NCBI GenBank assembly: GCA_029940215.1
Contig: JAOZRE010000003.1
Coordinates: forward strand, 1-46,921
Direction of reading: 5' to 3'
Origin: a bacterium
GTDB taxonomy: Bacteria > SAR324 > XYD2-FULL-50-16
Length of the DNA: 46,921 bases
The position numbers and the translations under genes are program-made. The notes under the pieces are model-generated. The model searched no databases, was not told where the DNA came from, and saw nothing but the letters and a program-made list of their open reading frames with translations. Positions 33,546 to 35,864 of the stretch are shown in pieces (the stretch's first letter is position 1; the number at the start of each line of letters is the position of its first letter).

Positions 33546-34352
33546 CTATCCCTTGGGGGCCTCGTGAAACATGGTGGTTCGACCGCCGTCCACCACAATG
33601 TCCTGGCAGGTAATATACGCACCCTCATCACTGGCCAGAAACAGGGCGGTATTGGCTATGTCTTCCGGCAGGCCTGATTTTCCGAGAGGTGTGGCAAACG
33701 CCAGGTTTCGCTTCAGTTTTTCCAGTTTCTTGGCGTTTACCTCATCATCTATTGTATTGGCAACCTCAGAGCCGCCCCAGAAAATGGGTGTGGCCACAGC
33801 TCCCGGTGAGATGGCATTTACTCGGATACCATATTGACCCACCTCAAGTCCTGCGATTTTAGTCAAATGTGTAACACCCGCCTTGGCAGCGCTGTACAGA
33901 TATCCCCCCTGTCCTGAACGAATCGCAGCAATGCTGGAATTGTTGAGAATACAGCCGGAGCCCTGCGACTTCATGGCGATAGTTGCATGTTTGATTCCAA
34001 AGACCACGCTGCCAAGCAGCAGACGCATGGCATAGTCAAAATCATCAGGGGTTACCGTTTCGAGTGTCCCTTCACTGCGACCGCCTGCATTGTTGAAAAG
34101 GCAGTCCAGGCGTCCGAACTGGCTGACTGCCAGGTCGACCAGAGCCTTGATATCGGCTTCATCCATCACATCCGCTCTCTGAAAAACCGCTTTTTCACCC
34201 AACCGTTCTGCGATCTTCCTGCCCTTTTCCTCTGTACGCCCTGCCAGAATCACGCTGGCACCCTCAGCTATAAAAATTTCTGCTGTCACTTCACCAATAC
34301 CACTTGTCGCACCGGTTATCACCGCGACTTTTCCTTCCAACCGTTTTGCCAT
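33546..34352 (-). CDS. Short-chain dehydrogenase/reductase (SDR)
   Basis: TGATSGIG, FNNAG, YSAAK, IRVNAISPG. Confidence 0.93.
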   Translation of the reverse strand: MAKRLEGKVAVITGATSGIGEVTAEIFIAEGASVILAGRTEEKGRKIAERLGEKAVFQRADVMDEADIKALVDLAVSQFGRLDCLFNNAGGRSEGTLETVTPDDFDYAMRLLLGSVVFGIKHATIAMKSQGSGCILNNSSIAAIRSGQGGYLYSAAKAGVTHLTKIAGLEVGQYGIRVNAISPGAVATPIFWGGSEVANTIDDEVNAKKLEKLKRNLAFATPLGKSGLPEDIANTALFLASDEGAYITCQDIVVDGGRTTMFHEAPKG

Positions 34353-34449
34353 CCATCACCTCCCTGTTAGATACTAAAAAATTAAAAAAAGATTTACCAC
34401 GGAGACACAGAGTTCACACCAAATACGGGGAAATCTCGGCTTTTATCTA

Positions 34450-34746
34450 CTAACAGCATCCGCTGCTGTTACCATCATCCGAACAACCGCATTCGGGTTC
34501 ATTACCGGTAACCATGCCATAGATTATGGCTGCTGCGCAGCCCACTCCGGCTGTAACCGTAATGGCCTCAAATTCACAATTGTTCTGGCAGGCACCGCAT
34601 TCAATGCACCGATCGCGATCGGTCATCTCTGCTTTCTTCCCGTTCATCACAAACACGCCATGGGGACAAACCTCAGTGCACCGTTTGCAACCGGTGCACT
34701 TCTCGTCATCATAGGCAAGTGTCACCACATCTTGCAGGTATTTCAT
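34450..34746 (-). CDS. hgcB: Mercury methylation ferredoxin HgcB
   Basis: CTGCKRCTEVCP and CIECGACQNNC; GVGC, CGC and C-terminal CC; ATG 34746 overlaps the hgcA stop (ATGA). Confidence 0.95.
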   Translation of the reverse strand: MKYLQDVVTLAYDDEKCTGCKRCTEVCPHGVFVMNGKKAEMTDRDRCIECGACQNNCEFEAITVTAGVGCAAAIIYGMVTGNEPECGCSDDGNSSGCC

Positions 34747-35864
34747 ATGATTCCCCAAAATTGAAGTTTGTAGCAGACCAGAAGAATTACCGCAAGCAGA
34801 GCCAGTGCGGCGTAGATTTTCAACAGGATTCGCAGCTCCTTTGTCACACCGGACGGGCTGGTAAACGTGCTGCAGCCGGTGAAATTGAATGCCAGGTAAC
34901 CACTCAATGCCGGAAATACCAGGTAGGAGGCCCCCAGCAGATAAATACTCTCAAAAGGGGTGGCATAAGTTCCAGTCAGGGCATGAGCAAGGGCAACTGG
35001 CAGCAGGCCCAGCAAAAAACCCTTCATCGAAAACGACCTGAACGGGATCCATGGCAGCAGAACAGGGGCCAGAGCGGCCCCTGTGAATACCGCTGCCAGG
35101 AAAAGCCCCAGCACGGGCAGCCCTTCTGAAAGTGCCTGCCCGAACAAAATGCCTTCTGGCATCAACCCGAAAAAAACAAAAAGTCCCAGAACAATCATCC
35201 AGGATTTTTTAAGCGTCATGGACAGTTCCATGGGGACCAGTACAGTCCTGGCTTTTATATCAAAGGTAACCCGTCGCATCTCTGGAAGGACTTTCTCTCC
35301 ATTCTCCAGGTACTCCCTGAGATCTCGTGCTTCAATGGGACCGAATTTAACCCTGAATCCTGTTGCTTTTTTAACCTCATGTGATCTGATCCCAGGGGCT
35401 CCCAGCTGAGGAGCAATGACCTTGTGGTGATCGACCACCCTCTCCAGACCCGTCATGCGGATTTGCCGGATAATCTCGTCTGTCCCGAAGGTCCCCTTGC
35501 CGGCGGCACACCAGACATTGATGCCCTTTGTGTCCAGTACCAAAATCCAGGCGTCAATGCCGTACAGTTCCCGTCTCAGAATATCAAAACTTAATTTATA
35601 GTTGGCTGAGAGCAGCACCGGGGATTTTGACGTTGGATTACCGACCGCGAGTAGTCCGGGTTTGACTCTGTAATCCATGCGGTATCGATCGCTGATGCGG
35701 GCCTTGAATTCCCCTCTGCGATCATCGTTGCCCCAGATGGTTGCTGCCTGGTTGATATTGCCGATGGGGGTGCTGACGGTGCCCGTTATCCAGGGCGGTG
35801 GTGGTTCAACGGGACCGGAAGGTAACATATTTAGTGGAATTCCGGTGAAAGATTGATCTGACAT
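34743..35864 (-). CDS. hgcA: Mercury methylation corrinoid protein HgcA
   Basis: Cap-helix motif GINVWCAAGKGTFG; YRVKPGL, ANYKLSFD, PQLGAPG, FGPIEA; C-terminal TM domain with FTGCSTFTSPSGV; hgcB immediately downstream. Confidence 0.97.
   Translation of the reverse strand: MSDQSFTGIPLNMLPSGPVEPPPPWITGTVSTPIGNINQAATIWGNDDRRGEFKARISDRYRMDYRVKPGLLAVGNPTSKSPVLLSANYKLSFDILRRELYGIDAWILVLDTKGINVWCAAGKGTFGTDEIIRQIRMTGLERVVDHHKVIAPQLGAPGIRSHEVKKATGFRVKFGPIEARDLREYLENGEKVLPEMRRVTFDIKARTVLVPMELSMTLKKSWMIVLGLFVFFGLMPEGILFGQALSEGLPVLGLFLAAVFTGAALAPVLLPWIPFRSFSMKGFLLGLLPVALAHALTGTYATPFESIYLLGASYLVFPALSGYLAFNFTGCSTFTSPSGVTKELRILLKIYAALALLAVILLVCYKLQFWGII

Follow-up and report, generated by a model that had tools for sequence, protein, structure and literature searches.

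A predicted hgcAB pair, probably inherited in place, within a fatty-acid catabolic cluster of an uncultured deltaproteobacterium-like lineage

The hgcAB pair

The gene pair hgcAB, whose products are associated with the methylation of mercury, was identified on the minus strand of contig JAOZRE010000003.1, a 46,921-bp stretch of bacterial DNA analysed over its whole length and called the window below; it is the entire contig C252 of the metagenome-assembled genome (MAG) GCA_029940215.1. The upstream gene, hgcA (34743-35864, minus strand), encodes a 373-aa corrinoid protein, HgcA, whose C-terminal part forms a membrane domain (NF040863; PF03599, CdhD), and hgcB (34450-34746, minus strand) encodes a 98-aa ferredoxin with two [4Fe-4S] clusters, recognized from NF040864 and its motifs. 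The pair lies in a cluster of fatty-acid catabolic genes, between a FadB-like gene and a row of acyl-CoA dehydrogenase (ACAD) genes, and a short-chain dehydrogenase/reductase (SDR) gene, SDR_A, follows hgcB on the same strand. Judged from its sequence, the hgcAB pair of this locus is canonical and comes from a new lineage.

Both proteins were scored with the equivalog hidden Markov models of NCBIfam, which carry curated cut-offs, while domains were assigned with Pfam. With the HgcA_corrinoid equivalog NF040863 the HgcA of the window reaches 396.9 bits (cut-off 275), and a six-frame search of the genome (397 bits) showed hgcA to be single-copy. The cap helix NVWCAAGK at residues 116-123, located by a regular expression on the translation and by reading of the sequence, is encoded at 35496-35519 on the minus strand, and its Cys119 is the presumed cobalt ligand. 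Four or five hydrophobic segments fall within residues 214-364 (about 216-241, 251-269, 278-301 and 346-364, with a weaker one between); the membrane domain was called from Kyte-Doolittle hydropathy alone and on that basis agrees with the approximately five C-terminal transmembrane helices of the family. The N-terminus is backed by full-length relatives that are 75-79% identical. Neither of two related families accommodates the protein: the score was 72.3 bits against a cut-off of 306 with the model of AcsC-type corrinoid iron-sulfur proteins (CFeSP; NF003195), and 205.8 bits against 285 with that of the HgcAB-like fusions (NF043039), the window having two separate open reading frames (ORFs). 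An exact-sequence look-up of this HgcA returned no record.

HgcB scores 121.9 bits with NF040864 (cut-off 99). It contains two CX2CX2CX3C motifs, CTGCKRCTEVC at residue 17 and CIECGACQNNC at residue 47, an additional Cys70 (GVGCAAA) and a C-terminal GCC with Cys97-98. The stop codon of hgcA and the start codon of hgcB share the 4-nt overlap ATGA (34743-34746, minus strand; sequence atcATATGAaa), the arrangement of translationally coupled genes, and relatives have a GTGA overlap at the same position. A first-pass annotation made from the letters of this DNA had already pointed to the cap helix and transmembrane domain of HgcA, to the CIECGAC motif and terminal CC of HgcB and to the ATGA coupling, and all of these were recovered here. 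The pair is intact and canonical by the sequence criteria of the field, which supports the view, also expressed in that annotation, of the organism as a potential mercury methylator.

The same two-gene unit, hgcA then hgcB, is found in Pseudodesulfovibrio mercurii ND132 and other confirmed methylators. ND132-type HgcA shares the N(V/I)WCA(A/G)GK cap helix with its Cys, and the succession of a corrinoid domain and a membrane domain, and ND132-type HgcB shares the two [4Fe-4S] motifs, the internal Cys and the C-terminal CC. Unlike the hgcAB of ND132, which has arsR2 (bioRxiv 10.1101/2022.10.17.512643), that of the window has no co-transcribed ArsR-like regulator upstream; its genes overlap by ATGA, its setting is a beta-oxidation cluster, and its activity in Hg methylation is a predicted one. 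A homologous corrinoid-binding domain (PF03599) occurs in AcsC/CdhD, the CFeSP large subunit of the Wood-Ljungdahl pathway, but HgcA of the window has the Cys-bearing cap helix and the membrane domain and lacks the N-terminal FeS domain. The fusion family NF043039 combines related corrinoid and ferredoxin modules, which are encoded by two genes in the window. By homology, HgcA would be a membrane-anchored corrinoid protein in which the cap-helix cysteine ligates cobalt and from which a methyl group is passed to Hg(II), while HgcB would re-reduce the corrinoid, its C-terminal CC probably handling Hg.

A site shared by close relatives

A database-wide protein search yielded seven clusters of HgcA at 75-79% identity to that of the window, and their contigs were fetched and compared. 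The same order, with one or more ACAD genes divergent from hgcA and hgcA followed by hgcB, was observed in five independently assembled lineages: L255-257, L258 (the species of MAG G001), L259, L261 (a contig from GCA_003358065.1) and L262. In L255, L258, L259, L261 and L262 the flanking ACAD orthologs, present in one or two copies, are 81-90% identical to those of the window. On the other side of the pair, hgcB is followed in L255/256, L259 and L261 by FadB (80-82%) and SDR_B (78-80%), both on the opposite strand, and by a thioesterase gene (69-71%) in the direction of hgcB; FadB is directly convergent with hgcB in L255, L259 and L261. The L262 contig matches this order and stops at hgcB. The window differs from this block by the presence of SDR_A between hgcB and FadB, of a DUF7064-APH-partner module between SDR_B and FadB, and of a third ACAD gene. 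The outer flanks are variable: where the window has AOR, three lineages carry LacI-DctPQM and one carries RsgA.

The identities of FadB, ACAD and HgcA place these relatives at about the same distance from the window as G001, and the conserved arrangement can therefore be ascribed to approximately one genus. The composition of the hgcAB segment lies within the range of the genome, with a GC content of 0.515-0.520 and a GC3 of 0.545-0.572, and its tetranucleotide distance equals the median of random genome pieces. The codon adaptation index (CAI) of hgcA is ordinary (z = -0.87) and that of hgcB is on the high side (z = +3.7). On this comparative evidence, hgcAB is held vertically at one fixed site within a clade of approximately genus level, made up of uncultured bacteria labelled 'Deltaproteobacteria'. 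A literature search on the accession numbers of the relatives found nothing.

The sister species G001 deserves a separate description. Its MAG was scored as lacking hgcA. The SDR_A ortholog (84%) and those of the ACADs (87-89%) are located on two short contigs, C101 and C250, on which no remnant of hgcAB was found and which both break off in dispersed repeats, a few hundred bp before the expected position of the pair. The 'empty site' that was initially drawn from these contigs is ruled out by L258, a 49-kb ENA contig that matches 7,780 bp of C250 and 5,391 bp of C101 at 100% identity and that joins both through hgcAB and an insertion sequence (IS) element. The order in L258 is ACAD, ACAD, repeat, hgcA, hgcB, a DDE transposase gene on the opposite strand, an inverted copy of the repeat, SDR_A, RACo and AcsC; the two copies of the 237-bp inverted repeat (7716-7961 and 11477-11711) are 94.5% identical. 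Read against L258, the G001 MAG is hgcA-negative only because a repeat-bracketed segment of 3.8 kb was lost from the assembly. The repeat-bracketed unit formed by hgcAB and the transposase gene in L258 might be mobilisable.

Promoter and operator sequences upstream of hgcA

The absence of ArsR, which had been remarked on at first reading, holds for the 47-kb contig: no HTH_5 domain was found among the scanned ORFs of the window, including all plausible genes of at least 86 aa, and the seven HTH_5 matches of the genome are all on other contigs. Since HTH_5 was found in 16 of the 134 upstream neighbours of the census described below, an hgcAB without ArsR is the majority state and is not unusual.

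A sole sigma-70-like site was detected on the minus strand within 33300-36300. Located at 35917-35945, approximately 50 nt upstream of hgcA, it consists of a -35 box TTTACA, a 17-nt spacer and a TG-extended -10 box TAGGAT, and constitutes the predicted hgcAB promoter. The block TTTAC(A/G)...CTGTTA(G/A)GATT...AGTGCACT aligns with the region upstream of hgcA in L262, and a related CTGTTAGGAT block is present in L261. The pair appears to have its own promoter, from which the two coupled genes would be read together. The 8-bp palindrome AGTGCACT of this block, at 35905-35912, is positioned just 3' of the predicted -10 box and is kept in L262. No riboswitch or other RNA upstream of hgcA was revealed by Rfam matching in the window. 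A near-palindrome, CAGG(A/T)AACCTG, occurs upstream of hgcA at 35866-35876 and 35924-35934, the second copy overlapping the ribosome-binding site (RBS); the motif CAGGWAACCTG has 16 copies in the genome against approximately 5 expected, and it is not retained in front of hgcA in relatives.

Between hgcA and the first ACAD gene lies a perfect 26-bp palindrome, AAAAATAGAGCAT|ATGCTCTATTTTT (35995-36020), the predicted ACAD operator. It is directly followed on the plus strand by TTGACA (36022-36027), the -35 box of the promoter of the ACAD operon, which is conserved base for base in G001. The core of the palindrome and its ACAD-side flank are kept in all six loci adjoining ACAD genes, while the interval separating the palindrome from the hgcA ATG ranges from 137 bp, the value of the window, to 648 bp as a result of repeat insertions. 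The core GAGCA-N2-TGCTC with its AT-rich flanks has only six occurrences in the 5-Mb genome. Copies are found upstream of ACAD genes, upstream of a dienoyl-CoA-reductase-like gene, and between etfBA and a TetR-like gene with an acyl-CoA synthetase; sites were located at 35995-36020 and 24822-24833 in the window and at C44:44560 and C242:9039 elsewhere in the genome, the TetR-like gene occupying 43621-44328 of contig C44. The palindrome thus goes with the ACAD genes, and its most likely role is that of an operator at the ACAD promoter, belonging to a TetR/FadR-type lipid regulon. An action of this operator at the hgcA promoter is unsupported by these comparisons, and hgcAB would be independent of the lipid regulation.

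The downstream SDR gene

SDR_A (33546-34352, minus strand, 268 aa; adh_short_C2, 3.9e-56) is a classical short-chain dehydrogenase/reductase. The first-pass annotation had placed it about 98 bp downstream of hgcB on the same strand, with no clear terminator between the two genes. Indeed, the spacer (34353-34449, minus strand) measures 97 nt and the genes are co-oriented; no terminator-like site was found on the minus strand of the spacer, which has a T-run (34376-34390) without a preceding hairpin and a fold z of +1.25 relative to shuffled sequence. Alignment of the spacer with the sister species is limited to its last 21 nt, the RBS region. An imperfect inverted repeat of 17 nt on either side of hgcAB (34363-34379 and 35911-35927) was considered as a sign of insertion and judged to be due to chance, because one of its arms is the conserved RBS region of the SDR gene.

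The ortholog of SDR_A in G001/L258 is intact and 84% identical, and a 1.4-kb transposase gene on the opposite strand and a repeat separate it from hgcB. SDR_A is absent at this position from L255, L259 and L261, three of the four close lineages in which the position can be read, and is IS-separated in the fourth, so that it adjoins hgcB directly in the window alone. The genome contains on contig C379 (L143:2-1616), away from any hgcAB, a 70% paralog of SDR_A in tandem with a 79% paralog of SDR_B. This 3.6-kb contig also holds copies of a 97-bp element present in the window at 26974-27071 and 31102-31198. In genus g6 of the same family, distantly related SDRs (36-40% identity) are located a few kb away from ACAD10/11-like genes. 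By its distribution SDR_A behaves as a resident gene of the lipid-cluster type, and there is no sign in these comparisons that it serves as an accessory of HgcAB. Whether it receives read-through from hgcAB in this species can be put at roughly even odds.

hgcAB in more distant relatives

A lineage designated P0004 (HgcA 78% identical; GCA_018693585.1 and eight other contigs, 18 member sequences) shows a different arrangement. There, Pta and a histidine kinase lie before hgcA, and after it come an ACAD unrelated to that of the window (26% identity) and an acyl-CoA ligase; hgcB is cut off after approximately 10 codons (L263:4958-5230, and also L264 and L265).

The closest distinct HgcA lineage outside the 75-79% group is a sister clade at 55-57% identity, composed of G011 (GCA_018657625.1) and the loci L266-L270, which belongs to the same bacterial family and pairs with the HgcA of the window in the tree (SH-aLRT 92). 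Like the window, it has an overlapping hgcA-hgcB unit. Three lineages of this clade have an AlaX-like gene immediately before hgcAB, and the resulting alaX-hgcAB unit is located back to back with a Cobalamin riboswitch (RF00174) operon that comprises CbiK, an ABC-2 pair, FecCD/Peripla_BP_2 and a TP_methylase (corrin methylase); these sites are L267:5766-5964, L268:5604-5794 and L270:5768-5953. In contrast to the window, the context of the sister clade is one of corrinoid supply, without ACAD, FadB or SDR neighbours.

The hgcAB loci L100-L105 of the family (G007, G014, G016, G017, G018 and G011) have no flanking gene in common with the window. Taken alone, this family-level synteny suggests a fully incidental context, which is contradicted by the site shared at the genus level. 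The other HgcAs of the family fall in two separate places across the deepest split of the tree, which is fully supported, so that one family has its HgcA in at least three unrelated lineages; the approximately unbiased (AU) test rejects a single HgcA clade for the family (p = 0.0014). These polyphyletic HgcAs agree with the published view of a repeated horizontal transfer of hgcAB (PMC7438021).

Flanking genes were finally counted in a census of 161 hgcA loci, providing 117 downstream and 134 upstream neighbours. The 117 downstream genes are distributed over 106 Pfam families, of which the commonest is SBF/Acr3 (n = 10). No ACAD, FadB or SDR recurs among the 161 loci, and adh_short is not among the recurrent downstream families. 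MarR equals HTH_5 upstream, at 16 of 134, two counts that may overlap. McDaniel et al. reported in 2020 that hgcAB has no conserved neighbourhood and that a putative upstream regulator is found in 112 of approximately 1,000 genomes (PMC7438021).

The contig, its genome and the flanking genes

The MAG that contains the window comprises 5.04 Mb in 612 contigs and is 89% complete and 3.8% contaminated. Its taxonomic placement, made with RpoB, is approximate: this protein is 78-81% identical to that of members of the same family, 57-61% to that of MAGs labelled 'Deltaproteobacteria', 55% to that of Syntrophales and less than 48% to those of Fibrobacterota, Spirochaetota, the PVC-group (Planctomycetota, Victivallaceae) and Bacteroidota; the closest named relatives carry the NCBI label 'Deltaproteobacteria bacterium'. 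Beta-oxidation genes abound in the genome, which encodes at least 38 homologs of ACAD, approximately 33 of the FadB domain and at least 30 of SDR. A dispersed repeat of approximately 180-240 bp, with at least 28 genome copies, is present once in the window (79-286), and it forms the end of numerous contigs both in this genome and in G001.

The lipid-catabolic neighbourhood described in the first-pass annotation was confirmed by the annotation of FadB/FadJ-like, ACAD, 3HCDH, enoyl-CoA hydratase and thioesterase genes around hgcAB. One flank comprises OYE/dienoyl-CoA-reductase-like, OYE, enoyl-CoA hydratase, thioesterase, SDR_B, DUF7064/7065, APH kinase, small partner and FadB-like genes. The last of these, encoding a FadB/FadJ-like enoyl-CoA hydratase / 3-hydroxyacyl-CoA dehydrogenase (31329-33410, plus strand; Pfam and NCBIfam), is convergent with the hgcAB-SDR unit. 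The other flank comprises three ACADs, AOR, 3HCDH and a radical-SAM protein. The ACADs are tandem ACAD10/11-like acyl-CoA dehydrogenases (36207-37397, 37497-38690 and 38878-40068, plus strand; Pfam ACAD N, M and C domains), divergent from hgcA. The third copy within 36207-40068 is an addition of the window, the relatives having one or two, as is the module of DUF7064, APH kinase and small partner at 28659-31075, between SDR_B and FadB, when compared with three close relatives.

In its content this neighbourhood resembles the Lva / ACAD10-11-type 4-hydroxyacyl-CoA clusters, with which it shares an APH-type kinase, a small partner, SDRs, a FadB-like protein and ACAD10/11-like proteins. To our knowledge, hgcAB occurs in no described lva cluster. 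Three close relatives have hgcAB although their lipid block contains no kinase module.

Origin of the arrangement and relation to lipid catabolism

The explanation that accounts best for these observations, and that is considered probable, is that of a canonical, vertically inherited pair with its own promoter, whose lipid-catabolic genes are neighbours by descent. The possibility of a recent insertion, raised in the first-pass annotation, would have a horizontally acquired hgcAB cassette enter the lipid cluster of this very species. The best named matches of HgcA do come from other phyla (Chitinivibrionales, Nitrospirota and Spirochaetota, 50-52%), the HgcAs of the family are polyphyletic, and the G001 MAG looked at first like an empty site, but this emptiness is a MAG artefact, since the contiguous L258 holds hgcAB there. 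The site is common to five lineages with HgcAs at 75-79% identity, the composition is native, and no direct repeats or mobile-element ends were found beside hgcAB in the window. An event of this kind is accordingly very improbable, and a horizontal transfer of the pair is likely at a much deeper level only. The same annotation had also raised a chimeric assembly, in other words an error of assembly or of binning. Such an error could be suspected in a fragmented MAG, given its 612 contigs, its contamination and its many dispersed repeats, and the junctions between hgcB and SDR_A and between SDR_A and FadB are found in the contig of the window alone. Independent assemblies reproduce, however, the order ACAD/hgcAB/FadB as well as the succession of hgcAB and SDR_A; orthologs of genus-level similarity (75-83% nucleotide identity) exist for both flanks, the composition is uniform and the junctions have no shared repeat. 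A chimera is hardly credible. Both the recent insertion and the chimera are rejected on the basis of the site shared with relatives and of the native composition.

The interpretation given in that annotation was, as a whole, borne out in part. Its other proposal was that the acyl-CoA context is a clue to the function of HgcAB. The comparison of relatives that had been suggested to settle it shows the same context at approximately the genus level and different ones at the family level and beyond: the gene order is shared within the genus, but the contexts of the sister clade, the family and the census differ, and the functional link suggested by these data is weak. With the possible exception of the SDR gene, hgcAB shares no operon with any lipid gene. 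In its strongest form, this proposal makes hgcAB a working member of the lipid cluster, co-regulated with ACAD and FadB, with a corrinoid chemistry that would serve the breakdown of substrates yielding acyl-CoA and of which Hg methylation would be a side reaction. The embedding between ACAD and FadB, kept wherever a close lineage has an intact pair, is in favor of such a role, as are the divergence of hgcA from an operator-controlled ACAD promoter, the operator being only 137 bp away in the window, the co-oriented SDR_A without a terminator, and the second, different ACAD adjacency of P0004. This conservation is restricted, however, to approximately the genus level, where descent predicts a shared order, and hgcAB has other contexts in the sister clade as in all wider relatives. 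In addition, the distance between operator and hgcA is not conserved and is interrupted by repeats in relatives, hgcAB is antisense to the cluster, and the P0004 rearrangement destroyed hgcB. With approximately 100 or more beta-oxidation genes in the genome, such neighbours are likely by chance, and the large numbers of ACAD, FadB-domain and SDR homologs make a chance adjacency plausible. A working role in the cluster is unlikely on balance. A more restricted possibility joins hgcA, hgcB and SDR_A into one operon, in which the SDR would be a dedicated HgcAB accessory in this genus. The common strand, the 97-nt gap free of terminator-like structure and the co-oriented SDR_A downstream of hgcB in G001/L258 agree with it, and beyond position -21 the sequence upstream of SDR_A is unlike that of the sister species, so that any promoter in the window is not common to both. 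Against it, SDR_A remains intact at 84% identity in L258 behind a transposase gene and a repeat, is not at this position in L255, L259 and L261, has its 70% paralog beside an SDR_B paralog elsewhere, away from hgcAB, and belongs to a family, adh_short, that is not recurrent among the 117 downstream neighbours in other lineages. A dedicated operon is quite improbable.

Several points weigh against the reading of the lipid genes as neighbours by descent. The junctions on either side of SDR_A are unconfirmed by independent assemblies. In P0004, hgcA is again located beside an ACAD, although a different one, and an acyl-CoA ligase, and the same rearrangement deleted hgcB. Finally, every close lineage that retains an intact pair has it amid the genes of the lipid cluster, and since this embedding is kept while the AOR, LacI-DctPQM and RsgA flanks vary, the position of hgcAB is as stable as the internal order of the cluster. 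The P0004 case argues for chance in a gene-rich genome rather than for selection, because its new ACAD adjacency came with the rearrangement that destroyed the pair. The most far-reaching view is that hgcAB became, in this genus-level clade, a lasting component of an acyl-CoA / 4-hydroxy-acid catabolic cluster and is co-expressed with it, with SDR_A co-transcribed in this species and a native corrinoid chemistry acting on a lipid-derived or co-occurring substrate; little probability is attached to it.

Under the reading of neighbours by descent, the coupled pair would have stayed for a long time at one intergenic site, antisense between FadB and the operator-controlled ACAD promoter, in a cluster for fatty-acid and 4-hydroxyacyl-CoA catabolism. 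The lipid genes would be neighbours in a beta-oxidation-rich genome rather than demonstrated functional partners, and SDR_A, which lies downstream of hgcB in this and the sister species, may receive hgcAB read-through here. The lipid context offers no solid clue to the native function of HgcAB; a co-expression, if shown, would change that, and a recruitment into the lipid cluster, if true, would provide a handle on the physiological role of HgcAB. Surveys based on hgcA only would overcount as methylator the P0004 lineage, in which hgcA was kept and hgcB lost, and calls of presence or absence of hgcAB drawn from MAGs can be wrong, of which G001 is a concrete case. By its sequence, a new uncultured, deltaproteobacterium-like and beta-oxidation-rich lineage joins the likely mercury methylators, and its locus shows how long hgcAB can persist at one chromosomal site.

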